64,000 bases of DNA, from NCBI GenBank assembly GCA_024613925.1, contig GCA_024613925.1_4713.1; one strand, 5' to 3'. The notes beneath the pieces were generated by a model. That model ran no database searches. It was not told the DNA's origin and saw nothing but the letters and a program-made list of their open reading frames with translations. Below, one piece after another: positions 11,686 to 56,513 of the stretch. The stretch comes from a phage. How positions within the stretch are numbered: the first letter of the stretch is position 1; every line of letters begins with the position of its first letter. The translations under genes were made by a program, and so were the position numbers.

Positions 11686-12028
11686 CATGAGTCGCTACCT
11701 CATACCCGCAGCTTTACCTGCAGCTTCCGGTGTTACCGGAATGACCAGAATACATCTTATCCATATTCCAAATGGAACGTAGGACTTCCGCGCTGGATCT
11801 CGCTTGAGACCACGTATTCGTTGAACGTTCTCCTGAACGGAGCTTCGCTGCTGATCGAACATTGTCACGTACGGTAGGCGTCCCCGAAGGGATTGTCATT
11901 GAAGCCGCGTACATCCGCTACCTTGTTTCTACCTTATCGGTTCCTCTTACGAGGCGTAGCGGCCTTAGCCCTTCCCAGCAATTCACGGAATCCAAGCTCT
12001 TCCTTTCGGAAGGCAGGGCCTATGATTA
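11686..12028 (-). ncRNA. candidate group I intron B (second of tandem pair) in beta-prime gene
   Basis: Minus-strand elements in canonical order: P GAAUUGCUGGGAAGGG (~11966-11990), Q AUCAGCAGCGAAGC (~11846-11859), R GUUCAACGAAUACG (~11811-11827), S AAGAUGUAUUCUGG (~11743-11760); P/Q and R/S complementary (UUGCUG/CAGCAG; GAAUAC/GUAUUC); P9-like hairpin UCCGG-UAACA-CCGGA; 5' splice site pairing (P1) not found. Confidence 0.45.
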
Positions 12029-12041
12029 AGCGTCACCGTCG
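12029..12041 (-). CDS. proposed 13-nt mini-exon encoding (F)DGDA of the beta-prime catalytic NADFDGD motif
   Basis: Minus-strand CGACGGUGACGCU lies immediately after a G that follows the intron A S element; joined to exon 1 (..AAC GCA GAU UU) it reads N-A-D-F-D-G-D-A in frame; followed immediately by UAA. Confidence 0.4.
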
Positions 12042-12419
12042 CTGTTTATCGACTATATCTTCATCCTCGTTGCGAGGAGTCTCCCGTTTTGGTCTGTGTT
12101 TAACAGAGCCTACTCTACTCGACATCGCGTCTTTCGATAGTCTGTGAGCACACATCTTAACGAACATTCGTGGATTCCTAAACAGGTGAATGTTCTTGTT
12201 GAGATGCTTCGCTGCGGATTATTCCCGTCCTACCTCTTTTACCATATCCAGTTCATTACGCTGGCCCTCATCTGTGTCACCACGATGAGTTGGTGTGTAG
12301 TCCGATTACAGAAACTTCCCGTCAATTAGAGAGTTTTAACTATGTTCCTGTTACCAGAAACCAGATCCCGACGGTATCAATAAATCAACGTAAGTTATTG
12401 AATTTATTGAAAAAAACTG
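12042..12419 (-). ncRNA. candidate group I intron A in beta-prime gene, inserted within the NADF/DGD codons
   Basis: Exon ends in U; internal guide-like GAUCUG (~12361-12369) can pair with exon end CAGAUU including U-G wobble; P AAUUGACGGGAAG (~12315-12329), Q AAUCCGCAGCGAAGC (~12207-12223), R GCUCACAGACUAUCG (~12134-12149), S AAGAUAUAGUCGAU (~12049-12066) in order; terminal G at 12042; 3' region after S is unusually short (no obvious P9). Confidence 0.45.
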
Positions 12420-15917: not shown

Positions 15918-17012
15918 ATGTTTCGTGTTTTAAATAACCTCCCGCGAACATCATCGGGTGTGCAACCCGTCCCTCAGAAAGACTATCTAATACGCGAAGT
16001 TCAAAGAAACCTACAGACAATCCAGAACCACTATCAAGGTTTTACCTTCGCGGTTCAGAGCGATCACATCCTTGCGTTGCTGCTCGCACAGCTCCCTATG
16101 AGATACGACATCTCAGTACAAACTTACTACGACATGATTCTCGATCTTACCCCAGAATTGGGTAATCGTGTCAAGTTGACAACATCAAGATACGCGGGTA
16201 AGTTATTCGACGGTGCTTTCTATCCGGGATTGCACGAAGCTATTATCGCAACCGGTGAAAGTCGTCTTATTTCACGTGACATTCTTGACAACTGGCGTAA
16301 TTGGTCGCCGGTTAGAATCGTGACGCACCCGTACGCAAATCTTCGTTACATTCCTCTTCACCGAAAGCCGGTTGAAGAAGGACGAGGTTTTGCGGTCATT
16401 ATGGTTGATGTACCTTTATTAGCGCTACAGTATCGAATGTGGTCTTTGGTCATGGGTCATAACGTCGACGGTAAATGGGTGGTTAAAGAACCGGTTACAA
16501 GCTTCCTTGCGAGTTTTCCGTTGGTTAACGCATTATACTCACACAACGATGTTGTTATACGCAATCGTTGTTTATGGGTATCTCCGGCTAAGAATCCACT
16601 CAAATCACCCATTTACGTTAACGACCTTGATAACGTATTCAGCCAAGTCGTTCTGTCCGTACAGCATCATTTATTACGCAGAAGACGAAGCTACACCGAC
16701 ATGCTTAAACAGATACCGAGTTTATACGGGGATCAGTACCAAGCAACCCGAATGGGTTACACCGTCGATCTTCGACAAACACGATGGGCAAGGGATCTGG
16801 GTTGTCTGTCATTATGGCAACAACTCGTCACATTGCAAAACGTATCTGAAAGCGTCGGGTTCAGCAGTCAAGTCGATAATGACCTGTACCGTGCTGCCGA
16901 CCGGAGTCTAAAAGAAGGTAACTGGGAATCCTCTCCGTTACCTGGTGATTTAAGACGTGAAGTTATCGCACAGGTTGCCGACCTCTTAAAAATTCTTCCT
17001 GCTGGTGCATAA
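15918..17012 (+). CDS. hypothetical protein
   Basis: 364-aa ORF, GGAG 5-6 nt upstream of ATG; convergent with 17079..19232. Confidence 0.5.
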   Translation: MFRVLNNLPRTSSGVQPVPQKDYLIREVQRNLQTIQNHYQGFTFAVQSDHILALLLAQLPMRYDISVQTYYDMILDLTPELGNRVKLTTSRYAGKLFDGAFYPGLHEAIIATGESRLISRDILDNWRNWSPVRIVTHPYANLRYIPLHRKPVEEGRGFAVIMVDVPLLALQYRMWSLVMGHNVDGKWVVKEPVTSFLASFPLVNALYSHNDVVIRNRCLWVSPAKNPLKSPIYVNDLDNVFSQVVLSVQHHLLRRRRSYTDMLKQIPSLYGDQYQATRMGYTVDLRQTRWARDLGCLSLWQQLVTLQNVSESVGFSSQVDNDLYRAADRSLKEGNWESSPLPGDLRREVIAQVADLLKILPAGA

Positions 17013-17017
17013 TCACC

Positions 17018-17066
17018 TCCCTCTTCCCTCGCATCCTCCCAACCCGTAAGGGAAGGGAGGATGGGG
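17018..17066. terminator. GC-rich imperfect hairpin between convergent genes (bidirectional terminator candidate)
   Basis: CATCCTCCC..GGGAGGATG plus CTTCCCT/AGGGAAG complementarity seen in sequence. Confidence 0.4.
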
Positions 17067-17078
17067 TGGTGGATTATG

Positions 17079-19232
17079 TTACTCTGCGGTTTCTCGCTTC
17101 GGTAAATAACTTGCTGCGATGTCTTGGGCTAACAATGTATTGTTTTTATTCGAGATGAAAATACCGTAACTTTCCATTAACGCGTAATACGAACGAACGA
17201 GCGTAGAGATCAATCGACGAATATCCATACCTTGAATAAAGATATCAGGAAGCCCGGAGGCTTCGATCACCGGTAATGGTATCGTTAAGTTGCTTATCGT
17301 TTTCTTATCGTTACGTACAATCCAATCACGGAAACGTTGTTGTAACCCTTTATCCTCCCAGGAATCAATCCAATCGTTAAGAAGCGTTTTGTTCTTCGTC
17401 GCCAACGGCACACGAACCCCAACATAGGGTGGTTCCTGGCAATGGCCGTACGATTGAGCAAACACCTCTTCCCACATATCGTAAGACTGTTTCGTTACCG
17501 CAACATGTGGTTTCACTTTAACACGTGTTAAGAAATCAGGATCACCACGTTTCATGGACTCAACGATTTCGTTTTCTAACGAGATAATATCGTCAAGAAC
17601 CAATCGAATGCTGATCTTCTCATTACGTAACAGCTTATCCATGATACCGCACATCATGCGTTCAACACGTTTGACGATCATTTTTGGTGCTGACGCATCA
17701 CGCATAACCGGACCTTTCAATTCCAGCTTCGGTGGATTGATAGGAACCCCTTCACGCATGGTCATGTAACCGTAATAGTTTTTACCCATCGAGGTTAACG
17801 ACAGAATCAAGAACATATATTCGTTCTTCATTTCCATCACGTACATATGCTCTTTCGCTACACCGATATTACCAGAACACATCGCCATCAGATGAACCGT
17901 AATCTGCGTAACCAGATAGATAAGCGTGTTTGCTAAGCGCGTCGAAACTGGATTGATCTCCATATTTCCAAATCGCCACTGAACCCACTCCTGGCAGGTA
18001 AACACCGTCGAGTCGGTATCAGACAACACGCCCACTTCACGGATTGCCGACGGAAAAGCATAAACGCCAGCCGGTTGGTTCTCGGTACGCCAGAACGCCA
18101 TAATCAAGTCAGCATAACTTTGGATGCGTTGCAGCATTAATTTTGTTGTTGCTGCGGTAAGACGATAACCAAGCTCATTTCCTTTTTCTAGCGCTACGTA
18201 AATCGCTTCCCCATTCAAGAACTCCGTGCATTGTGCTGTAATCCAAGCGACCGTGTTGTTATCCATGGAAGCAATAATGGCTTTAGCCTCTTCCATCGTT
18301 TCAACAGGTTCGGATGCCAGCTCACACAACGAGTCAAGAAAATCTCGAACAAATTCAGGATTAAGCTCACGTAACGAGTACAGGTTATTGCTGTACATGT
18401 AGCAGGCGCGTTCCAACGGCGTTAAACCGGTAATTAACTCCCGGATAGTCAGTTCTTTCTCTGGGTCGAAAGTATACCGATGTAAGCATTTCGATACGTT
18501 AGCCCAAACCTCTTCCGGCGTAGGGTAATGCAGTTTGTATTTTACCATTACCTGCTCAATGGCTTTACGATCGCTGTTACGGACGATGCTTACGATGTTT
18601 TCAATTGCGATATCACAATCGTAATAATGGAAATTGCCCGCAAGGAAGCGTTCGTTGTTCGCATTGGCTGAACCTGAAGCACAGCGACATGTTGTCGTTA
18701 GACTCGGATGCGCAATCGGATTATAAAAAGGGTTGAACTTGGACGCCTGGGTTCCTGACAAACTGTTGTTGTCTAACTTGGTGTTGGTTTGTCGTTTATC
18801 GTGTAGCTCCGCTTCGTCTTTACGTCCGTGTGCTTGCGCTATCGACATTTGTTTCTTTTGTTTCTTACGCAACTTACCGTTTTCAACCGCAAAGTCGCTT
18901 AGCACACTGGAACGTGTTTCACGTGGATAACAGTTAGCCCACACCGGCGTGATAATTAAATTATTTTCTTTAATATCGTTGAAGTATTGGCTGAACTTGA
19001 TGACTTCTTTTTCTCGATTTCCTTCGGTACGCTGCGTTAGTACAAGGCAGTCGGGATCAACCATCCCGTATTTTCCACCAGGACGAACCGTTTCAAGAAC
19101 AAACTGCAACGCTTCCTGCTGAGATATCCCACGCATGCGCATTAAGAACAGGGTATAATCCTGTACCGCTTCTTTGGTCATATCCAACGTACGACCATAT
19201 CCGTTTTCATCGTAAAAGAACGGATTTTCCAT
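17079..19232 (-). CDS. hypothetical protein (717 aa)
   Basis: Long ORF; GGAGG 4-5 nt upstream of ATG; function not recognised. Confidence 0.55.
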   Translation of the reverse strand: MENPFFYDENGYGRTLDMTKEAVQDYTLFLMRMRGISQQEALQFVLETVRPGGKYGMVDPDCLVLTQRTEGNREKEVIKFSQYFNDIKENNLIITPVWANCYPRETRSSVLSDFAVENGKLRKKQKKQMSIAQAHGRKDEAELHDKRQTNTKLDNNSLSGTQASKFNPFYNPIAHPSLTTTCRCASGSANANNERFLAGNFHYYDCDIAIENIVSIVRNSDRKAIEQVMVKYKLHYPTPEEVWANVSKCLHRYTFDPEKELTIRELITGLTPLERACYMYSNNLYSLRELNPEFVRDFLDSLCELASEPVETMEEAKAIIASMDNNTVAWITAQCTEFLNGEAIYVALEKGNELGYRLTAATTKLMLQRIQSYADLIMAFWRTENQPAGVYAFPSAIREVGVLSDTDSTVFTCQEWVQWRFGNMEINPVSTRLANTLIYLVTQITVHLMAMCSGNIGVAKEHMYVMEMKNEYMFLILSLTSMGKNYYGYMTMREGVPINPPKLELKGPVMRDASAPKMIVKRVERMMCGIMDKLLRNEKISIRLVLDDIISLENEIVESMKRGDPDFLTRVKVKPHVAVTKQSYDMWEEVFAQSYGHCQEPPYVGVRVPLATKNKTLLNDWIDSWEDKGLQQRFRDWIVRNDKKTISNLTIPLPVIEASGLPDIFIQGMDIRRLISTLVRSYYALMESYGIFISNKNNTLLAQDIAASYLPKRETAE

Positions 19233-24602: not shown

Positions 24603-24666
24603 GTGAACTCCTAACTTAATATGTATTTAACGCACAATGAATCTTTCTTTGCTAAAGGGGTGACCC

Positions 24667-26732: not shown

Positions 26733-27557
26733 TTAACTGTCGCTTTCTGATGTATCAACGTAGTTGAAAATACGATCCCGTAAACACTCATAACGAGGCA
26801 ACGCACTAAGAATGATCATCTTCAACTGCATCGCGATCGATATGCGTTCTTCATCCGATGCATCATCTCCCCATTTACCCGGCTTAACCTGAATAGGTTC
26901 ATGCGGATCCTGCGGGAATATAAAACTTAACAACAGATAATCCGTACGGAACTCCCACACTTCTCGACCGTCGTTATCGGTTTCCTTACGCAACGTGAAG
27001 AGTTGACGTTCGGTGGTTGGATCCAGCATCAGCGGTCGACCACGAACAATCTCCAGTTTACGTGGGCTGACGAACGTTGTACGTTCCGGAAGGTATTTTT
27101 CAACATCATCCGTATCCAGCAAGAACAAAATGATGTCGTCGAAATACTTCGGTGCGTACGTGTGTATCGGTTCACCATCGCTATACGAAGAGATCTCTTG
27201 GAGTATTGGTGTCTTACACGAAAAGTTCTGGCATGAACCACGGGTGATCGGTAAGGTGGCCCATTGGTGTTCTGTAGACAACTCAACTGGCACCAACGGA
27301 TAATCATCGATGAAGACCACGCACGTTGTGCTAATGGGTATTCTTCCATCATTACCTGGTTCAAAAACCAAACGTATCTTACCGGTAATCAGCGCCATCT
27401 CGTCCGGCATTAAATGGCTTGCTGAACGGGCAAGCCTGAAACCGGCCGCCTGTTTATAAGGTTCAGGTTTATAGCCACGGACAATAAGAGAGACATCCGC
27501 AAGTTCAACGCTCACGAATACATCTTTGGTGTCTTCATTGTTCGTCGTTAACGTCAT
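26733..27557 (-). CDS. hypothetical protein
   Basis: 274-aa ORF. Confidence 0.45.
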   Translation of the reverse strand: MTLTTNNEDTKDVFVSVELADVSLIVRGYKPEPYKQAAGFRLARSASHLMPDEMALITGKIRLVFEPGNDGRIPISTTCVVFIDDYPLVPVELSTEHQWATLPITRGSCQNFSCKTPILQEISSYSDGEPIHTYAPKYFDDIILFLLDTDDVEKYLPERTTFVSPRKLEIVRGRPLMLDPTTERQLFTLRKETDNDGREVWEFRTDYLLLSFIFPQDPHEPIQVKPGKWGDDASDEERISIAMQLKMIILSALPRYECLRDRIFNYVDTSESDS

Positions 27558-28572
27558 TGTTCATTTTCTCCATTGCAACGAATCGTTCAAGCTCGCGTAA
27601 TAAACGCTCTTTTAACGCAGGATCAACTTCCGGAGCATGTTTATCGCGATACCATTCGGTCCCGTTGTATTGCAGGCTAACATGCCATGTTCCTAACGGG
27701 CTTTCCTCTGCAGCGGCGATGAAATTCTTAACGCCGGTTTTGGTAGGATACTCCATGATAGGAACGGCCTGCTTCAGATCCATTACGGTAAGATCCTGGA
27801 AGTTATAATCCAGAAGCGTTAATGCGCGTTTGTCGCGTAGCAGTAGCCCGCAATCTAAGATGGTGAAATCGATACCCCAGAAACGTAACTTGCCTCCAAC
27901 CCCAACAGGGGTATGGCCACGATAAACCGCGAGATAAATCTCACCTTTATCGGTTTCTTTGTTGTACCCAGCAATAAAAGCAGCTGTGATTAATGGTTGG
28001 TGTCCTTTCGCTAAGAAGGCAGGGTGGTTATGATACAACCAGTCACTACGAATCAGATCGGTAACCTGACCTAAACGTGCTGTTGGTACCATCACCGATC
28101 CCAGAGTTTCATCAACAGGAACCTGGTAATATTCAAACAGAACACCATCAATTTCTTCGGTAGCGTAAGGCGTACGTGTGGGATCGTTAAGGAGTTTACG
28201 GAGTTTTGTGTCGATTTCGTTAACACGGCTACCCTGTTCTTTCTCGCGGCTTCCGATAACAAAAGCAACAAGATTGCGTACGCTAACAAAAACATCATCT
28301 TTCTCGGTGTCGCTAAGATCAGCTTCATCAGGCATTGTTGTCCAATGTAGTGGACCTTCAACAACCTTAAGCCATTTATCTTCGCGTTCAGGATAAACAA
28401 AAGGCTTATGCACAGGAACACTGGTGTGCTGAACACGTAATAACAGATTGCATAACGATGGTAATGTTTTCTCTAGAGGCGGCACTATACCACTCGTGAC
28501 AGCGATGACGTGACGATTAAGAACAAGAGAAGCTGAATAGGTGATGTTATCTAATCCTGGTAATTGATCCAT
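27535..28572 (-). CDS. hypothetical protein (first gene after long AT-rich leader)
   Basis: 345-aa ORF preceded by ~350-bp AT-rich non-coding region. Confidence 0.5.
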   Translation of the reverse strand: MDQLPGLDNITYSASLVLNRHVIAVTSGIVPPLEKTLPSLCNLLLRVQHTSVPVHKPFVYPEREDKWLKVVEGPLHWTTMPDEADLSDTEKDDVFVSVRNLVAFVIGSREKEQGSRVNEIDTKLRKLLNDPTRTPYATEEIDGVLFEYYQVPVDETLGSVMVPTARLGQVTDLIRSDWLYHNHPAFLAKGHQPLITAAFIAGYNKETDKGEIYLAVYRGHTPVGVGGKLRFWGIDFTILDCGLLLRDKRALTLLDYNFQDLTVMDLKQAVPIMEYPTKTGVKNFIAAAEESPLGTWHVSLQYNGTEWYRDKHAPEVDPALKERLLRELERFVAMEKMNNDVNDEQ

Positions 28573-28873
28573 GATAGAAATCCTTATTGGTTGCGATTAA
28601 CATATTAAGTTTAAAAGAGGTTATGTTTTACGTCATATTCGATGTATGTATTAATGAATTAGAATACTTGTATTTTTAAGTGAGTATAATAATAGTAATA
28701 AACCTAAATTAATCTCTATTGCTTATTGTTCTATCTAAAGATAGTAAACAGATATAATGCTCCCCACCTCCCCATTCTCCCAAGTAATACTGGCCTACCG
28801 GCCCTCTCCTTTTTAAGGGAGAGAGTAAGCATTCAGTATTGCTCAAATGAATAAGCAAAACAGTATAAACTTA

Positions 28874-28897
28874 CCGTCTCGAGATAACTCGAGACGG
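28874..28897 (-). terminator. perfect palindrome CCGTCTCGAG-ATAA-CTCGAGACGG downstream of gene 28927..29280
   Basis: 10-bp stem, 4-nt loop; start of long AT-rich intergenic region. Confidence 0.4.
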
Positions 28898-28926
28898 CGT
28901 AGTAGTATCTGTTTATCTCTTTTATG

Positions 28927-29280
28927 CTAACAGCCTATTTCTGCATGAACCTTTAACGATTCGAATACATCTTCCTTCTTTATCATCGTCTTGTATAAAC
29001 GTGATTGAGCAATGATCTTTATCCATTGTTGCGGATCGCGTAAATTCACATTTTCAAAACGGGGTGGGGTATTAGCTCCGTCGAGTCGGATATACCCTAA
29101 GAGCAATCCTTCATGGTCTCCTCGACGGATTTCGATATGCGGTTTGAGGAAGACACGATTGTCTGGTGGATACCAGCTTACGGTGTAGTAATGGTTTCCT
29201 GAAACAACGAATTCGTGAACGGTTTTTGTCTCGTCATCAATGACCGCATTTACGCTGGGAATCATTAATTTTTGAAGCAT
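28927..29280 (-). CDS. hypothetical protein
   Basis: 117-aa ORF. Confidence 0.4.
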   Translation of the reverse strand: MLQKLMIPSVNAVIDDETKTVHEFVVSGNHYYTVSWYPPDNRVFLKPHIEIRRGDHEGLLLGYIRLDGANTPPRFENVNLRDPQQWIKIIAQSRLYKTMIKKEDVFESLKVHAEIGC

Positions 29281-29864
29281 GGGACATAAACCTCCATCAA
29301 CATCGCATAAAGCGCACCAAGCCCATGCAGGACTTGGTTAGGTGCAAAGGTCGGAGTGTAACATACTTGTTCGGTCGGTGCTTGTTGACGTAAGTCTAAC
29401 GGATCTCCGTTAATAAGCATCTGCAGGAGATCAGCATCATCTTGCAATGTGTCTTCATCGATATACGCATCAACACAAAGCAGTCGGTGTAACTGTTCTG
29501 GTTTAATTGAAATACCGACAACCATGCAGTTGTTGTAAGTGGCGTTGTCCAGAAAGAAGTGAATGACGCCCGCTTGAGGATCGCCACCGTAGTGAAGCCA
29601 ACGCGTAAAACCGGCCGACATCATCCATAGCGGGTTGTGTTGTAACGCGCTGACGACGCGGGTCTCGAAATCCAAACCAAACTTCTGGAAGATTGCACCC
29701 ATCTGGAAACGATCTTCATCGAGACGGTAGCGGAATATACAGGCATCCGAACCGGTTGAATTATCATACACCGAAAGATACCCACGATGGATTTCCACGG
29801 TAACATTGTTGTCGTCAAGCGTAGCGCTCGCAACGCCGTTAGAAAAGGTTGGAACAAAGCTCAT
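29265..29864 (-). CDS. hypothetical protein
   Basis: 199-aa ORF. Confidence 0.45.
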   Translation of the reverse strand: MSFVPTFSNGVASATLDDNNVTVEIHRGYLSVYDNSTGSDACIFRYRLDEDRFQMGAIFQKFGLDFETRVVSALQHNPLWMMSAGFTRWLHYGGDPQAGVIHFFLDNATYNNCMVVGISIKPEQLHRLLCVDAYIDEDTLQDDADLLQMLINGDPLDLRQQAPTEQVCYTPTFAPNQVLHGLGALYAMLMEVYVPCFKN

Positions 29865-51143: not shown

Positions 51144-51656
51144 CTGTATACCTATAAATACCAATCTCTTGGGCGAATTTAGTTCTTATTCAACATAATC
51201 GTACTATTACCAGAATAAGACTGAGATTAGATTGTTCAGATAAGGTCGTTAATCTTATCCCGGAGGCGACGATAGGCACATCACCTCCCGCTTGCGCTCT
51301 CACGCAAGAGCAGACTATATCACATCTCGTTTCAAACGGTGCTTCTTCAGCACCTCAACGAGAGTTCACTTCTTCCCAGCGCATCCAGCGCCATTCTCTT
51401 ATCCAAGGAGAATGCCTCACTCGAGGGGTACAGGGGGATGAATCCCTTAGTCGTTGAACCTTTACCTTAGAACGCTTCACAGCGATCCTTAGGTACTTGG
51501 CTGCGGATTGTCCTTAAGCTATTATCTGTTTTTATAACCATACCGTCTTTCTTTTCAGAATCCGTTTTGGTCGATAACAGCGATGGATGTCTTCGCAATT
51601 CAGTGAATCTCATCTACATGTCGCCACATAGACGGACCCTGCTATTAAAAGCGTTA
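51144..51656 (-). ncRNA. candidate group I intron in RNAP beta gene, inserted at conserved HDD/ANR motif
   Basis: 513 nt with no ORF; minus-strand P AAUUGCGAAGACAUCC (~51583-51602), Q AAUCCGCAGCC (~51495-51513), R GUUCAACGACUAAGG (~51436-51466), S GUGAUAUAGUCUG (~51305-51326) in order; UUGCG/CGCAG and GACUA/UAGUC complementary; exon 1 ends in U followed by UAA; G precedes exon 2; splice keeps frame (..DRDD-HNRM..); P1 pairing not identified. Confidence 0.5.
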
Positions 51657-54600
51657 ATCATCTCTATCAGCAGCAGGTACTGCAAGCGCCGACGTACTCA
51701 TTATTGACGAGCTACCATCCGTTTTCTCGTCGTAAGGTTTCGTTTCACCGTATACAGACACAATGTTTGCGTTAGGTGCGAGGTAAGCAGAAATACCTAC
51801 GTCCCCACTATCCTTCGTACCTTCGGATACAACACCAATGTCCGACTTGTCGTATTCACGATCGCGTGCGCGTCGAAGCGATGTCTTTGAACGACCCCCG
51901 ATACCGGTCATCGTCGCTTCTTCACCCTGCTTGATATCCAGCATCGGGTTGGTTTCATCGATTACGATGGAAGCGCTGTCGTCGAGAATCTGGTTCCAGA
52001 CGCTTACCGGACTGATTGAGATTTTCTGGCGGTTTCCTTGACTGCTGTTCTCATTCTGACGAATAGCGCCAACCAGATCCTTATACACCAACTCAGCGAA
52101 CTTATCGTACGTTTTAAAACGTTGGTAGTTCACATCGTTCGTGTTAGGTGCCCAATCATCCAGAAGCAGTTCGACGGCACGCAGTAACAACATGGCGAAA
52201 TCGGTAGGTTCTCCCATGTTCTGCAGCAACGTACGGCTTACCGGATCAACGAAAAGACGCTCCATGAGTTCAAGTTCGCGTAAATGGCGAACCTTAAGTC
52301 CAGCCCCATCGACAACGTTAAAATAGATATCTCGATTGTCAAAAGCGCCGCGAGCGTAACCAATGTAGTTACGGTATTCGTTAAACCCACCCAGCAACAA
52401 CGTCGTCATGCGATCGTCTTTACTGAAGATCAGACTTTCGTCGTCAAAGCTCACCGCGAATTCATCGGGTGCTAACCCCATACGAGAGCCGCGAGGTACC
52501 GTACGATAGTTCGCTTTAAGATGTTCTAATAACGGGGTAAGCCCACCCAGATAACTTAGAACAACACCGACCGGAATACGTACACCCATGAATTCAAGAT
52601 CGGCGGCTTCGATCGGCATCTTAGCCGCATTGATACCGAAGAAATCAGGGAACGTCCCTACAGGTGTTGGTGTTTGTCCTGACTGACAGATATAGAGCTG
52701 ATTGCGTTTATCGATTGCTAAGAATTCACCCAGCGTGTTACGCGCAAACGTCAGGAGTCCTTCGGCTAACTGTTCGTTGAACCGATCTTCCCCAATGAAC
52801 TCCGGCAATGTCTTTGTATCGAGACGTATATCCCAATCAGCAAATTGGATTTGGGTATAGTTGCGTGCAAGCACAGCGAAGTAATACGGAACTTTGACAG
52901 CTGGATCAAAGACGTTACCACGTTTCAACGTGGTTAAGGGTGAGGACTTATCGTAATACATCGCCGTAAGTTGACGTGTTAGCCAACGACCCGCATTATT
53001 AACGACACGCTCTGAACGTTTAACAAACACCTTACCGTAGGCGGTACTCAACGCAACTTCAGATGACGATACCTTTCTAATAGGTTTATCAACACGTTGT
53101 TTACGCATCCGGTATTTGATGCCGTTAACGACATAAATGCCGTCCTTACGAACCTTCGGCAACATCACCGGGAACGTGGTCGGGACACCGCCTACAGGAG
53201 CCAGTTTAATCGTGATGACTTGATAATCCCCCATCACGTCAACAACATCTTCAACTTTATATCCCGTGACAGGGTAACCTGCCTGCTGTACCGCAACGAC
53301 GGCAGCTGCGATGTCCTTTTGCATTACGTGTTCAACGTAATGTTTATCCCACACCGCAAGCGTCGATTTACACAGGCTCTTATCGACGATAACATCCGCT
53401 TCCGGCATAACCTTTGCAGGCGCTAATTTTGCGGCTTTTGGTTTAACTTCAACATACTCAGCAAGTGTTAATCCAGAACCGTCGGGTGCTTCGATTTCAT
53501 GGATGGCGTCAGCATTACGCATCGCTGCTTTATATTGGACACCGCTTAACTGACCCGCATCCGCCAGATCGCTCGCGCGTACCAACACCGCATCCGATAA
53601 CGACTGAATATATTCGCCATGCGTTTTCGGTAACGTTGCCGCGTCAAAGACATCAACCTTTTCTTCTTCGGTATCGTCGGTAACGACTTCGAAGAGATCG
53701 TCGGTAATGTCCTGATCTTCATCGGGCTGGAAATCTGGTTGTACTTCTACCCCGGGTACTTCACGGACATCTTCGAACGAGCGTTCTACAATGGCGTTCC
53801 ACGCATCGGCATCATCGTCTTCATCCGACCCACCGACCAACTCCGCTTCTAACTCGTCGGGATCAAGAACGGTAGCGAGATCCTCACCGTTAGGAAGCAC
53901 GACGTCGCGATCATCATACTCCGCATCCGGGCTGTCCGCAAGAATATCTCGCTCTTGACGAAGAACCTGTTCCTCTTCTTGTTTCTGTTCTTCTTCATTC
54001 GCGCTCTGCGACCACAGACGTGTTACCGCCATCATCCAACGACGTTGGAAGGTTTCAAGTGTCGTTTTATCGAGTTCTTCCCCTTCCTTCACAAGTCCGG
54101 TACGCCATTCTTCCAGCAGGCCGAGATTCAGCGTAAAGAAGTACACACCGTCTGTAAATACGATGTTAAGCTTATCCAGCGTGGCTCTGTCTAACGAAGC
54201 CATCGTGCTGTTCTCACGATCGGTTCCCAACCAGCGGAAGAAGTCAAAGAACGACAGCTCCTCCGGTGTGGCGAAATTCATGAGGTTATTACGGGTCGGT
54301 GCCTGTTGCGTGGTACGCATCAACGAAATCTTCGGCAATGTTGACGGTATACGGAACAACAAAAAGTGTTGGCGATCGCTTTGCTGTGCGATTTCGTTGG
54401 CTTTCGACCAAATTGTTTTACGTACGTTGAACCATTCATCATACCAACGGGTGAGCGTTGGACGATAAATGTACATGTGGTTAAGATGCGCGTAGTTAGC
54501 AACGATCTGAGCGTTGATGTTTTTCTCCACCGTGCTTAGATCGGTAACCAAACGAAAACGACGATGTGATGCACGATAATCCAATTTCGCTCGTGGGAGT

Positions 54601-54866: not shown

Positions 54867-56513
54867 TTAGGCTCCACGAGGTCCCGTTAAGTTGCGTAAT
54901 AGGAACGCAACCGTATCGTAACCAATATCAATGTTGAATTTATTTTTACCACTTACCCAGAAAGCTCGCTTCTTGTGCGAGTTGGTAATTTCGTCAATAG
55001 CTTCCATGGAATAAAGAACGTTAACCGAGACCGTATCACCGTCGAAGTCCGCCCCGAGGCCAGCTAGAAACACCTGGCCGACTTGGGTCGTTTCTACAAA
55101 TGACGCTTTCAATGACCAATCTGGGTATTCCCATGCCATATACCGATCGCCTTCTAACGGTTGCCAATCGACACCGAGTTCTCTTCTTGGCTTCGTGTTA
55201 ACTGTCGTCCGCACATAGCAGGTTAACGGTATAACTGATTGCATTCCCGATACTGGATAACGTGTCACCATCGCACCGAGTTTATTCCAAAGATGATAAC
55301 CGCTCAGATAAACCAATTCGCAGTATGTAACCGGATGAACATTAGCGCCAGGTTTGTTCAGCATCTCTGGGGGTATTTCACTCATGCCACGGAATAACCG
55401 AAACGAATCGTTGTTCACATAGACGAGGCAAAGATAACGCCCATTAACCATGATAGGTTCGTTACGCACACCAGGATCGCTTAGCGTGTTCAGTAAACGT
55501 TCGATACCGTCCCACGTTGTAAAGTCATCGATGGTATCTGGGTCTAACGTGACGCGTTCACGTTCCATCGTTTCGGTATCGATAAGCTCAGCTTCAGTAA
55601 CATCACGAACAAATATTTCCTGCAAAATCCCCGTACGTAATGCGTGCTGTGTGATAGGAAGAGCAGCCTTGCTCATCTGATATAGACCAAGTTGTACTGA
55701 TGTACACGAAGTCTGGTTCGGTGAGCCGAGAACCTCTGTAGTTGGGATGACAGCCGAAATAACGTTACGGGTTGAGTTCCAAACGCGACGTGAACCGAAC
55801 TTCCCTTGGAAGATCCCTTTCTTACCTTGGAACATATCCAACAACAAAGCGTAGATATCGTTGAATGTTCTCTGTAAGCTCCAGCGCTGGCCGTCGTAAA
55901 CGGGATCGGAATAATCTTTTAATCCATCAGGGACGGTGTTAGAAATTGCAAGGAAACGACGATACAACTCCGTGATTTCTTGCTCGCTTTCATACCCGCC
56001 TTCTTTTACTTCTATTTCACGTAAGCCTGCAGGTAATACCAGTAAGTGACGGGTCATCGCTTTGAACATGTTCTCTTCGACAACTTTAATTCGTAGCTCT
56101 CGTTGAGCTGAACCCGTTGAAACGAACTTGATATCCGCGACGTGTTGTGCAAAGAACCCGTATCCTGTTTGTCCTGTTAACGCATCAGACGCAACGAAGT
56201 CGCGTTGTTCAGGATCCCAACGAGCATACGCCTTTCCCGACATGATATCACCATAGAGGTGTTTTAGTCGAATGAGGCGGTCGTAAATGACAGGGTGCAG
56301 GATTTCAACCTTGCATTCAATCACCGCAAATCGACGGTCTCGATCTTCACTACCTGCACTACCAAAGATGGTGTAAGAATAGAAACCATCATCGTGGAAA
56401 TTACCGGTGCTTGGGTCACGAATGCTCATGCTCGTGATCTTGGGGAGAAAACGTAACTGCTGTTTATCGAGGTGTAAAATACTAATGTTAAACGGCTCTC
56501 TGACTTTAGCCAT
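54867..56513 (-). CDS. RNA polymerase beta-prime N-terminal fragment (virion RNAP candidate)
   Basis: Contains intact catalytic motif GADFDGDTVSV (NADFDGD family) and GKKGIFQGKFGSRRVWNSTRNVISAVIP matching [24 protein letters not shown]; track ORF trimmed to ATG (MAKVRE..) with GGAG 8 nt upstream; adjacent and divergent to giant lysozyme-domain gene as phiKZ gp180/gp181. Confidence 0.6.
   Translation of the reverse strand: MAKVREPFNISILHLDKQQLRFLPKITSMSIRDPSTGNFHDDGFYSYTIFGSAGSEDRDRRFAVIECKVEILHPVIYDRLIRLKHLYGDIMSGKAYARWDPEQRDFVASDALTGQTGYGFFAQHVADIKFVSTGSAQRELRIKVVEENMFKAMTRHLLVLPAGLREIEVKEGGYESEQEITELYRRFLAISNTVPDGLKDYSDPVYDGQRWSLQRTFNDIYALLLDMFQGKKGIFQGKFGSRRVWNSTRNVISAVIPTTEVLGSPNQTSCTSVQLGLYQMSKAALPITQHALRTGILQEIFVRDVTEAELIDTETMERERVTLDPDTIDDFTTWDGIERLLNTLSDPGVRNEPIMVNGRYLCLVYVNNDSFRLFRGMSEIPPEMLNKPGANVHPVTYCELVYLSGYHLWNKLGAMVTRYPVSGMQSVIPLTCYVRTTVNTKPRRELGVDWQPLEGDRYMAWEYPDWSLKASFVETTQVGQVFLAGLGADFDGDTVSVNVLYSMEAIDEITNSHKKRAFWVSGKNKFNIDIGYDTVAFLLRNLTGPRGA

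Follow-up and report, generated by a model that had tools for sequence, protein, structure and literature searches.

What does a phage keep in a long gap between tightly packed genes? The question is raised by 354 nt (28573-28926) within a 64,000-nt stretch of phage DNA (GCA_024613925.1, contig GCA_024613925.1_4713.1; the whole stretch is called the window here), which is 95.5% identical overall to Escherichia phage Goslar and thus represents a Goslar-like relative. Goslar is a nucleus-forming jumbo phage and serves as the E. coli model chimallivirus. The gap lies between the minus-strand ORFs 28927-29280 (117 aa) and 27535-28572 (345 aa), with genes of the same orientation and tight packing on both sides. 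Upstream of it lies the three-gene unit Goslar_00210-00208 (RefSeq gp225-227), and downstream the five-gene unit Goslar_00207-00203 (gp228-232).

An earlier note on this DNA had singled out the gap as the longest outside the introns, and proposed that it could hold several promoters, a small RNA, or a packaging or replication-related site. With the Goslar annotation transferred, the claim about length holds, with the intron-associated gap 11689-12042 tying at 354 nt, and all literal sequence elements listed in the note occur where it placed them. The gap is located amid accessory orphan genes. The labels gp207 and gp208 of a 2026 virion paper follow RefSeq numbering and denote different genes; the gap flanks are RefSeq gp228 and gp227, which are not mentioned there. 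No map of Goslar promoters, terminators or non-coding RNAs was found in the searchable literature, and the published RNA-seq for this phage gives values by gene. The features discussed below are collected in Table 1.

Table 1. Features of the gap and the adjoining start codon, in the order in which a minus-strand transcript would meet them
Feature	Position	Strand	Description
Extended stem-loop (hairpin A)	28858..28914	-	57 nt, about -27 kcal/mol; U-rich stretch UGCUUAUUCAUUU after the stem
Perfect 10-bp palindrome CCGTCTCGAG-TTAT-CTCGAGACGG	28874..28897	-	Top of hairpin A; arms 28874-28883 / 28888-28897
Single-copy non-coding core	28727..28862	-	136 nt, near-unchanged in all 15 related sequences
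Predicted imperfect hairpin (long hairpin)	28771..28855	-	85 nt, G·U-rich: U/C-rich 5' arm, CUCUCC/GGAGAG apical stem, G-rich 3' arm
G-rich block GGGAGAAUGGGGAGGUGGGGAGC	28759..28781	-	5' half is the 3' arm of the long hairpin; 3' half unpaired in the predicted fold
Mini-hairpin CTATCT-TT-AGATAG	28731..28744	-	3' edge of the core
Exchangeable AT-rich cassette	28634..28726	-	Present in the window as the long haplotype, which has a 58-nt insertion; GC 16-26%
Promoter-like word TTTATTAC	28695..28702	-	Best of the cassette; 7/8 match to the TATATTAC core; 4 nt upstream of TATTATACTCAC
TATTATACTCAC, the "early-promoter variant" of the earlier note	28680..28691	-	Inside the 58-nt insertion of one haplotype only
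Conserved proximal block ACGTAAAACATAACCTCTTTTAAACTTAATATGT	28600..28633	-	34 nt; TATG at 28604-28601; both haplotypes
Short leader	28570..28599	-	Shine-Dalgarno AAGGA 28585-28581; ATG 28572-28570 of the 345-aa gene

Conservation of the core

The comparison set comprised 15 related sequences, with an overall identity spanning only about 83-98%. A first impression that 205 nt identical to Goslar were remarkable was dropped, since the window and Goslar commonly share perfect runs of 200-577 nt on a background of 95.5% identity. Because of this high background, a conservation test required more divergent relatives, and such relatives were found. Three contigs ending inside the spacer (L012-L014) were considered as possible transcript ends and rejected. 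In L012 and L013 the sequence breaks off about two bases short of an A/G polymorphism within the cassette, hence the ends are most likely assembly breaks.

The core is identical in 6 of the 15 sequences. In the divergent lineage it differs at no more than 14 of 136 positions (at least 90% identity), and the flanking genes of that lineage are 79-89% identical. Neutral evolution would be expected to produce 35-58 differences, and the probability of the observed conservation under neutrality is at most 1e-6. The 29 nt directly past the stop codon are identical at 10 positions in the divergent lineage, unlike the adjoining core. The earlier note had named poor conservation, together with transcriptional silence, as the mark of simple spacer; the core is well conserved, whereas the AT-rich middle part is poorly conserved. 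Sequence comparison argues that the core is constrained at the nucleotide level, probably by purifying selection.

The core could nevertheless be functionless, with its identity stemming from recent recombination or hitch-hiking in a mosaic phage population. In addition to the common long identity runs, about 3% of background 205-column windows in a four-genome alignment are equally conserved, and the region lies at recombination breakpoints. As these phages are highly mosaic, close relatives owe part of their identity in the core to recent common ancestry and not to selection. The divergent lineage speaks against such a plain spacer, however, as the conserved core is embedded between poorly conserved adjacent non-coding sequence and synonymous sites that are 57-74% identical on both sides. 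Furthermore, differences between lineages are spread over the whole core, which was thus not simply transferred along with the neighboring cassette. We regard a functionless core as unlikely.

The core carries no coding signal. Its identity at codon positions 1/2/3 is flat (0.91/0.93/0.91), whereas third-position identity in the flanking genes is 0.57-0.74. A protein of 44-49 aa might be encoded from a TTG start at 28858 (MLIHLSNTECLLSPLKRRGPVGQYYLGEWGGGEHYICLLSLDRT...). Of the six frames, no other stays open in all 8 haplotypes. A pair of indels (+1/-1) brings this frame back, several changes are synonymous in it, and one gene caller predicted the ORF in a Goslar-like contig (P0012). The lack of codon periodicity stands against this reading, as do the TTG start without a Shine-Dalgarno sequence, a C-terminus differing between haplotypes, and the fact that the ORF is uncalled in all 11 contigs compared. 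A search of 1.84 billion representative proteins yielded no homolog outside the clade, matching only the ORF itself and two unrelated repeat proteins. We consider a small protein very unlikely. A 33-aa ATG ORF was also rejected, with its ATG lost in two lineages, a stop in L016 and mostly non-synonymous changes.

Across viral, metagenome and genome collections, matches to the core are confined to Goslar-like contigs and to this locus alone. Neither sequence searches nor covariance-model searches retrieved a paralog in Goslar or the window, and no match was found in E. coli. A host-derived or mobile origin was rejected, given the missing E. coli match and 18-mer matches in bacterial genomes that are due to chance. 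A MITE-like mobile element was likewise rejected, as its 10-bp inverted repeat is not conserved and the element is single copy at one locus only. A weak covariance-model match at 17005-17111, considered as a structural paralog, is another hairpin with a CU-arm and a G-arm, located between convergent genes. The covariance scan against Rfam suggested by the earlier note matched no family at the gap. At gathering thresholds, the sole match in the whole window is a group I intron at 51291-51658, and a permissive Rfam 15 scan of 28000-29500 (E<=10) yielded only chance snoRNA matches far below threshold. A tRNA/tmRNA scan found none.

Predicted structures on the sense strand

The CTCTCC..GGAGAG hairpin described in the earlier note is present (arms 28804-28812 / 28815-28823) and caps the longer predicted hairpin of the core. 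The long hairpin has a predicted energy of -33.2 kcal/mol on the minus strand (z = -4.3) and -26.9 kcal/mol on the plus strand (z = -3.9), the lower minus-strand energy being due to G·U pairing. Folding of the whole core on the minus strand gives z = -3.7. The gap region as a whole folds strongly on both strands (z = -5.2 minus, -5.7 plus), but high foldability is not special, being common to about half of the window's intergenic gaps of at least 100 nt (z <= -3.5 in the larger gaps).

The long hairpin was recovered in three ways, namely from the single sequence before variation was seen, by RNAalifold, and by folding every variant alone. RNAalifold on the core alignment returned the same helices with zero broken pairs. 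In the predicted hairpin, helices H1-H3 add up to about 20 bp and are interrupted by two 1x1 mismatches. All core variants retain the hairpin, and a GAA->GGU change strengthens it. In helix 2, 19 of 20 pairs are invariant; the core has three wobble-preserving single changes and no pair changed on both sides. No pair-breaking substitution occurs outside the indel-shifted apical stem of the L010 lineage, and the fold of L010 itself still forms the hairpin. About 8 substitution events fall in unpaired columns versus the 3 wobble-preserving events in paired columns, which constitute 63% of columns (p about 0.02-0.07). Since most core pairs never vary, covariation is essentially nil and the case for the structure is built on thermodynamics and the placement of substitutions.

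By G4Hunter score, the G-rich run GGGAGAATGGGGAGGTGGGGAGC of the earlier note (28781-28759) ties for first place in the 64 kb. Two words within it, GGGAGRNNGGGG and GGTGGGGAG, are shared with terminator-type hairpins at 17055 and 9294, and 6 of 9 words of this class are intergenic. One position of the block occurs in three states (A/C/U). The mini-hairpin varies as well, with its loop inverted from TT to AA in L016 and a U-A pair changed to U·G in L010. Overall, loops, bulges and the G-rich tail are near-invariant, which a simple terminator would not require, so something more sequence-specific may operate. A terminator/anti-terminator switch in which CUCUCUCCC would alternate between a local partner and the distal G-run was rejected because natural variants break it. 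The switch folds are near-isoenergetic in the window (-41.6 vs -45.2 kcal/mol) and 9-10 kcal/mol worse in L015 and L016.

An independent small RNA, as the earlier note had envisaged, would explain why nucleotide-level constraint extends to loops and the G-rich tail of a single-copy, clade-specific core with strong predicted structure. Such a trans-acting RNA gene (about 140-200 nt) might act by base-pairing or as a protein decoy, for example if a host RNA-binding protein recognized its several GGA/GGAG motifs. In ϕKZ and 201ϕ2-1, short structured RNAs from intergenic regions or 5'UTRs, delimited by conditional terminators, have been described (PMC10914365, PMC11512511). The core resembles the 141-nt TU237 RNA of ϕKZ and sRNA005 of 201ϕ2-1 in size (about 70-250 nt), in its intergenic position upstream of a gene, in its strong predicted structure, and in being conserved among related jumbo phages. 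The core has no sequence or Rfam relationship to these RNAs, however. The known RNAs are defined by a mapped start site and a terminator. The core, by contrast, has no evident promoter on its 5' side, and the downstream gene's candidate promoter lies 3' of it. The 50-70 nt upstream lack conserved promoter-like sequence, with 10/29 identity and a deletion of hairpin A in one lineage. Moreover, no U-tract terminator follows the core, and a search for trans targets found no complementarity of at least 11 nt between the core and the rest of the 64-kb window. The small-RNA proposal is compatible with a core that is constrained and predicted to be structured, but an independent gene seems improbable for want of a conserved promoter and an Rfam family.

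Since the plus strand also folds well, a DNA-level role is conceivable. The core could serve as a binding platform for a protein regulating the downstream promoters or, jointly with the AT-rich tract, as an R-loop replication origin. The inner helices are true DNA palindromes, and palindrome loops occur in flipped states (TTGT to ACAA, TT to AA), suggesting hairpin extrusion or template switching in DNA. On the transcribed-sense strand, the joint-top G-rich run immediately precedes about 95-150 nt at 16-26% GC, and this tract varies in sequence while keeping its AT-richness. Origin mapping for chimalliviruses was not found in the searchable literature. In the long hairpin, though, the outer 13 pairs rely on G·U pairing, which is unavailable in DNA, and the three changes at paired sites can all be accommodated by minus-strand RNA only. 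A repeat search found no iterons and no tandem or direct repeat families of note; the site shows no GC-skew inflection, and its accessory-orphan-gene surroundings give no hint of replication. The AT-rich tract is the one feature present that would fit the packaging or replication-related site of the earlier note, and this suggestion was left unsupported. We judge a DNA-level element to be quite improbable. Its most specific form, in which the core and the AT-rich tract together would make up a transcription-primed (R-loop type) replication origin for this nucleus-forming phage, appears extremely unlikely. There, the G-run GGGAGAAUGGGGAGGUGGGGAG of a read-through transcript would form a persistent RNA:DNA hybrid or a G-quadruplex just upstream of the easily melted 95-150 bp.

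Hairpin A begins 13 nt past the stop codon of the upstream gene. The perfect 10-bp stem reported in the earlier note is confirmed (-20.5 kcal/mol, z = -6.5), but the loop given as ATAA is the plus-strand reading and corresponds to TTAT on the minus strand. Perfect hairpins of at least 10 bp are non-random in the window, with 6 observed versus a mean of 0.47 expected (maximum 2 in 30 dinucleotide shuffles). The palindrome loop occurs as TTAT, TTGT and ACAA (the reverse complement of TTGT), and as AATC/GATT in variants with a 9-bp stem; the stem next to the loop is shortened or mismatched in L015 and L017. Two of the 23 pairs of hairpin A show compensatory C-G->U-A changes, both in the L016/L028 lineage alone, and the covariation score was reached by 4 of 500 shuffles. 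Loops free to vary or invert and two compensated pairs are signs of selection on pairing over sequence, with support from this one lineage. Hairpin A is missing from the L010-L014/L032 lineage. A long-range 10-bp inverted repeat (28915-28906 / 28754-28745) was weighed as a closing helix and as the ends of a transposon, and was rejected because L016, L028, L033 and the L010 lineage do not keep it. Within extended hairpin A, its 5' arm has a closer partner, and the compensation is found there.

In ϕKZ and 201ϕ2-1, many hairpin terminators with shared motifs are known (PMC10914365, PMC11512511). As in these chimalliviruses, where GC-rich stem-loops mark the ends of transcription units and long stems are typical, hairpin A is a stable GC-rich stem-loop directly past a stop codon, a position and make-up expected of intrinsic terminators. 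It also resembles other GC hairpins at gene ends in the window, where shared words recur as CUCCC and GGGAG-type arms at 9.2, 13.7, 17.0, 25.5, 32.3 and 45.7 kb. Unlike the known terminators, neither hairpin A nor the long hairpin is followed by an uninterrupted U-tract, and clean U-tracts are present at other junctions in the window. The tail reads UAAGUUUAU after the top stem of hairpin A and UGCUUAUUCAUUU after the extended stem, and hairpin A itself went uncalled in a consensus scan (at least 5 U in 8), which picked up just a weaker 10-pair stem overlapping it. The core differs from terminators further in being conserved in its loops and tail, far longer than termination requires, and reliant on G·U. 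Hairpin A looks like a leaky terminator or a 3' stabilizer for the upstream three-gene unit.

The AT-rich cassette and candidate promoters

The AT-rich stretch of about 150 nt reported in the earlier note has 16-26% GC in 50-nt windows over 28575-28749. The cassette within it exists in two haplotypes flanked by the same conserved blocks. Cassette identity to the window is 79-82/86 in full-length L010-type sequences (L010, L011, L032) versus 20-21/86 in Goslar-type sequences.

ϕKZ uses early AT-rich, middle AAanTTACc and late TATG promoters (PMC4666361, PMC8244752). Recurrent intergenic words of the window include TTTATTAC and four sites with ...TATATTAC(C/T)T and common flanks. The T[AT]TATTAC class of TTTATTAC is enriched in intergenic DNA, where 8 of its 14 copies lie. 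TTTATTAC is found only in the long haplotype, however, and Goslar-type sequences have GTTATTAAC at the homologous position and also lack TATTATACTCAC. Conservation of ϕKZ-early-type words at the orthologous position in relatives was not found. TATTATACTCAC matches the recurrent TATATTAC core at 6 of 8 positions, and similar words in the window (at most 2 mismatches) occur at chance level (4 observed vs 5.0 expected). The second word of the earlier note, TGACGTAAAAC, is present at 28635-28625. A σ70 promoter in the gap was rejected, with one weak match versus 4.3 expected.

The proximal block is a better conserved candidate region, with 3 variable columns among the 13 sequences covering it and an invariant TATG (13/13). 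An identical copy of its 12-mer AACTTAATATGT lies upstream of another gene at 24613-24624. The ϕKZ late promoter consists of TATG with G as +1, and TATG is necessary but not sufficient (PMC4666361). The TATG at 28604-28601 has both the motif and a typical leader distance (PMC4666361, PMC8244752), being located 29 nt before the ATG in the window and 41 nt in relatives, near or within the typical 31-40-nt leaders of ϕKZ. The difference stems from a 12-nt indel in the short leader, missing in the window. Across the window, TATG is in excess 13-57 nt upstream of starts, with 9 of 27 leader regions having it at -13 to -57 versus a background of 11.5%; the motif is nevertheless frequent by chance. 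Based on motif, spacing and conservation, the TATG is a candidate ϕKZ-late-type (nvRNAP) promoter and start site for the 345-aa gene. Several promoters, as the earlier note proposed, are plausible through TTTATTAC and the conserved TATG, but not through TATTATACTCAC, given its restriction to one haplotype, 6/8 match and chance frequency.

A proposed composite operon junction

We suggest, with about an even chance of being right, that the gap is an ordinary composite operon junction on the minus (sense) strand that includes a cis-acting, so far unclassified RNA element. Coming from the upstream unit, transcripts would meet the GC-topped stem-loop and its U-rich stretch first, which might act as a leaky terminator or a barrier to 3' exonucleases. 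The 136-nt core would follow and act as RNA in cis, folding into the 85-nt G·U-rich hairpin with a G-rich tail. The style of this hairpin, with a CU-rich arm and a G-rich arm, would be that of the phage's other 3'-end hairpins. Likely roles of such a core would be in defining, stabilizing or processing the upstream mRNA's 3' end, or in keeping the two units insulated from each other. What remains may be a stable, structured 3'UTR-derived RNA of about 140-200 nt. Further downstream, the recombination-exchanged AT-rich cassette and the conserved TATG block would supply the promoter(s) for the next gene.

The polycistronic mRNAs of the coliphages T7 and T3 carry RNase III processing hairpins between genes. 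The predicted long hairpin is similar in being a conserved intergenic, interrupted helix of about 20 bp in the sense transcript of an E. coli phage, and cleavage here would leave a protective 3' stem. The stems here are G·U-rich, though, and form a single site rather than a series. Also unlike in T7 and T3, chimallivirus mRNA is made inside a proteinaceous nucleus.

The finding is modest and lineage-restricted, and it does not overturn current views. Should the core prove to be a functional RNA, Goslar would gain a first defined cis-regulatory or 3'UTR RNA element and, with it, a target for investigating how mRNA ends are made and protected inside the phage nucleus. The two-haplotype promoter cassette with its conserved borders neatly illustrates how near-identical jumbo phages exchange regulatory modules. 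Annotation and engineering of Goslar-like phages could draw on hairpin A, the core and the words TATATTAC, TTTATTAC and TATG as candidate parts.

Genomic setting and relatives of the spacer

Searching a phage collection with the 3-kb neighbourhood of the spacer returned Escherichia phage vB_EcoM_Goslar as the sole match. Goslar is a nucleus-forming jumbo phage of the Chimalliviridae, and a comparison of all 64 kb found the window to be collinear with Goslar 156-223 kb at 95.5% identity. Goslar genes 210-209-208 and likewise 207-203 are tightly packed or overlapping within each group, so that the 354-nt gap divides a same-strand block of eight genes. With the Goslar annotation transferred to the window, the spacer is the longest gap outside introns, as the earlier note had it. 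Pfam and PHROGs gave no families for the flanking genes or their neighbours, barring a divergently transcribed 414-aa gene in phrog_2921, a family without assigned function; two Pfam hits were sub-threshold chance matches. Recent Goslar papers number genes by RefSeq (HOV27_gpNNN), which differs from the GenBank tags (Goslar_00NNN). The virion proteins gp208 and gp209 of a 2026 structure preprint were ruled out as the flanking genes, which are RefSeq gp227 and gp228. Close homologs of both flanking proteins (P0003, P0011) carry names from assemblies of Salmonella enterica serovars Newport and Typhimurium, in agreement with Goslarvirus genomes reported as hidden within bacterial assemblies (PMC12768965).

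Features of the spacer and its flanking genes in transcriptional order
Feature	Coordinates	Strand	Remarks
Goslar_00208 (RefSeq HOV27_gp227)		minus	117 aa, upstream of the spacer, annotated hypothetical
Linker	28926-28915	minus	poorly conserved, between stop codon and hairpin A
Hairpin A	28914-28858	minus	extended stem-loop, -27 kcal/mol, topped by the 10-bp palindrome
Core	28862-28727	minus	136-nt conserved block
Long hairpin	28855-28771	minus	85 nt, imperfect, predicted by single-sequence fold (-33.2 kcal/mol, z = -4.3)
AT-rich cassette	28726-28634	minus	two haplotypes, 58-nt insertion in the window's version
Proximal block	28633-28600	minus	34 nt, conserved across both haplotypes, 3' end AACTTAATATGT
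Short leader	past the proximal block	minus	12-nt indel, Shine-Dalgarno AAGGA, ATG
Goslar_00207 (gp228)		minus	345 aa, downstream of the spacer, annotated hypothetical

Introns and endonuclease genes are polymorphic for presence among these near-identical phages. At 11689-12409 the window lacks Goslar_00186, an HNH/NUMOD1 homing-endonuclease gene that adjoins the group I intron of an RNAP beta'-like gene in Goslar, and the non-coding part alone remains. At 51291-51658 on the minus strand, a group I intron (56.2 bits to Rfam RF00028) lies in a stretch without Goslar counterpart (51164-51670). Goslar 211,754-213,837 (~2.1 kb), with intron Goslar_00229 and Goslar_00230 (ϕKZ ORF179-like), gives way to 40 nt in the window (55047-55086).

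The first alignment to Goslar found about 205 nt past the stop codon identical save for one loop base. Runs of 200-577 identical nt are common background between the two phages, and the identity was dropped as a remarkable feature. Against three IMG/VR relatives (~95% identical) the block was only among the top three conserved stretches of an 8.4-kb neighbourhood. More divergent relatives were therefore sought in two ways: contigs were fetched via flanking-protein homologs in a large protein collection, and words invariant within the conserved block were used to scan collections of viral, metagenome and genome sequence. The comparison set held 15 sequences representing eight core haplotypes, including a divergent lineage (L010-L014 and L032) with flanking genes just 79-89% identical to those of the window.

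A conserved core with a predicted long hairpin

At most 14 of 136 aligned core positions differ from the divergent lineage, amounting to about 8-10 events including one +1/-1 indel pair. Identity to the same lineage is 10/29 in the non-coding 29 nt directly past the stop codon and 57-74% at third codon positions of the flanking genes, and neutral drift would be expected to leave 35-58 differences in the core (p <= 1e-6). The differences are distributed over its full length, hence the core was not simply carried along with the recently exchanged cassette. The core appears to be functional, under a constraint other than protein-level. Only one of six frames stays open across every haplotype (44-49 codons, TTG start), and four facts count against its translation. 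Codon positions 1, 2 and 3 have nearly equal identity (0.91/0.93/0.91), with real neighbour genes at 0.87-0.99 for positions 1-2 and 0.57-0.74 for position 3; no Shine-Dalgarno sequence precedes the TTG; the C-terminus is not alike between haplotypes; and among 1.84 billion representative proteins, searched exhaustively with HMMER, just the frame itself and two unrelated repeat proteins matched. The core is single-copy in both Goslar and the window and has no match in E. coli. Its only occurrences in three public collections are in Goslar-like jumbo phages, always at this locus, which rules it out as a mobile or host-derived sequence.

The long hairpin is predicted to have a lower part of three helices (7, 6 and 7 bp) with 1x1 mismatches between them, then a 3-nt bulge and the apical stem CUCUCC/GGAGAG. 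Eleven G·U pairs give the minus-strand fold an advantage of about 6 kcal/mol over the plus-strand fold, and RNAalifold recovers the same helices. These are kept in every natural variant, with a GAA->GGU change gaining pairs, and 19 of 20 pairs in the lower helix block are invariant. Outside the indel-shifted apical stem, all paired-site changes preserve pairing through wobbles (two from C-G to U·G, one from U-A to U·G); changes on both sides of a pair were not seen, most pairs being invariant. Unpaired columns, 37% of all columns, hold about eight substitution events (p ~0.02-0.07, varying with the way of counting events). An alternative fold joining the CU-run with the distal G-run is near in energy for some variants and lost in others. 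The modelled long hairpin remains a plausible, uncontradicted prediction.

Hairpin A, the AT-rich cassette and candidate promoters

All sequence features listed in the earlier note were found in the spacer, including the palindrome, although the ATAA given for its loop is the plus-strand reading, the minus strand having TTAT. The window holds six perfect hairpins of at least 10 bp against 0.47 in shuffles. On either strand the spacer's folding energy is far lower than that of shuffled controls, but such foldability is nothing special here: about half of the larger gaps between genes reach z <= -3.5. The loop of hairpin A takes several states across relatives, among them TTGT and its reverse complement ACAA, and the stem is shorter or mismatched beside the loop in two lineages. 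Two pairs change from C-G to U-A in the L016/L028 lineage (a covariation score reached by 4 of 500 shuffles), and the divergent lineage entirely lacks the hairpin, its remnant folding at just -5.3 kcal/mol. Given the loop variation, the compensatory pairs and the loss in one lineage, hairpin A seems to behave as a terminator-type or stabilising hairpin, selected for its pairing yet dispensable. It is similar to GC hairpins that lie at gene ends elsewhere in the window, several of which pass a U-tract rule that hairpin A fails; it otherwise shows most terminator hallmarks. Two palindrome loops are exactly inverted in relatives (L006, L016), TTGT to ACAA in hairpin A (28884-28887) and TT to AA in CTATCT-TT-AGATAG (28737-28738), an apparent signature of hairpin-mediated template switching in DNA.

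The window's cassette shares 79-82 of 86 positions with full-length sequences of the divergent lineage and about 21 of 86 with the Goslar-type haplotype, so that the window is recombinant here. Poor conservation, which the earlier note named as counting against a function of the region, applies to the cassette but not to the core. A deeply diverged allele module covers the initial ~255 codons of the 345-aa gene (27808-28572, minus), with third-position identity to Goslar and L017 of 0.54-0.55 against 0.91-0.93 in the last 90 codons; the window's allele is nearest to those of L016 and of UViG_3300011560. Module and swapped cassette together mark this stretch as a hot spot of recombination, the genome being 96-97% identical otherwise.

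The supposed early-promoter variant TATTATACTCAC is no more frequent in the window than expected by chance and, like the better word TTTATTAC, is restricted to the long cassette haplotype. TTTATTAC lies at 28702-28695 in the cassette and 18-125 nt before three plus-strand genes (15893, 30491, 39901), and 8 of 14 words of its class are intergenic. An extended motif, A/T-tract...TATATTAC(C/T)T, is common to four intergenic minus-strand sites (4617, 9896, 15743, 44755). Both site types are likely ϕKZ-type promoter cores of this phage. In ϕKZ, a TATG whose G is +1 marks late promoters and AAanTTACc marks middle promoters, and a typical leader measures 31-40 nt (PMC4666361, PMC8244752). Of 27 leader regions in the window, 9 carry TATG 13-57 nt ahead of the start codon; with a background of 11.5%, the enrichment before leading genes is roughly 3-fold. 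The TATG of the proximal block is invariant, 29-41 nt ahead of the ATG, and the 12-mer AACTTAATATGT recurs identically at 24613-24624 (plus), 44 nt upstream of the Goslar_00202 homolog. We infer a separate candidate ϕKZ-late-type start for the downstream gene inside the proximal block, and the cassette may add a candidate early- or middle-type promoter in one haplotype.

Proposed role of the core

G-rich words of the core are found again in further intergenic hairpins. GGGAGRNNGGGG occurs at just two sites in the window, the core and 17055. Six of nine GGYGGGGAG-like words are intergenic, though intergenic sequence makes up 6.3% of the window. In the other hairpins such words supply the 3' arm of a long stem whose 5' arm is of the CUCCC type. 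A hairpin of this kind at 9.2 kb is followed by a clean U-tract. Another, a 70-nt palindromic C-rich/G-rich hairpin between convergent genes (17010-17080; -41 to -44 kcal/mol on either strand, joint-top G4Hunter score for the window) is probably a bidirectional terminator. As modelled, the long hairpin would follow the general build of this phage's 3'-end elements, which favours a role of the core in 3'-end formation, stabilisation or processing. In contrast to these elements, its U-rich 5' arm pairs via G·U, no U-tract follows, and loops and tail are also conserved in sequence. These departures suggest a putative additional sequence-specific partner, protein or RNA. In the lineage without hairpin A the core is the sole structured element separating both gene groups, which fits a role tied to the upstream mRNA 3' end.

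There is a small probability that the spacer instead acts as DNA, as a transcription-primed origin or protein-binding platform. Its G-rich run, joint-highest by G4Hunter in the whole window, adjoins an AT-rich tract conserved in composition rather than sequence, palindrome loops are inverted among relatives, and the searchable literature yielded no chimallivirus origin mapping. However, neither iterons or tandem repeats nor a GC-skew inflection were found at the spacer, leaving the suggested packaging or replication site without positive support. T7-type RNase III sites provide a functional analogy. The closest known counterparts come from chimalliviruses: hairpin terminators that have motifs in common and, in ϕKZ and 201ϕ2-1, short structured RNAs from intergenic regions or 5'UTRs (PMC10914365, PMC11512511). 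The core falls outside every described family. The spacer is best read as an ordinary operon junction with terminator and promoter functions, and it holds one unclassified, clade-restricted and conserved element, the core.
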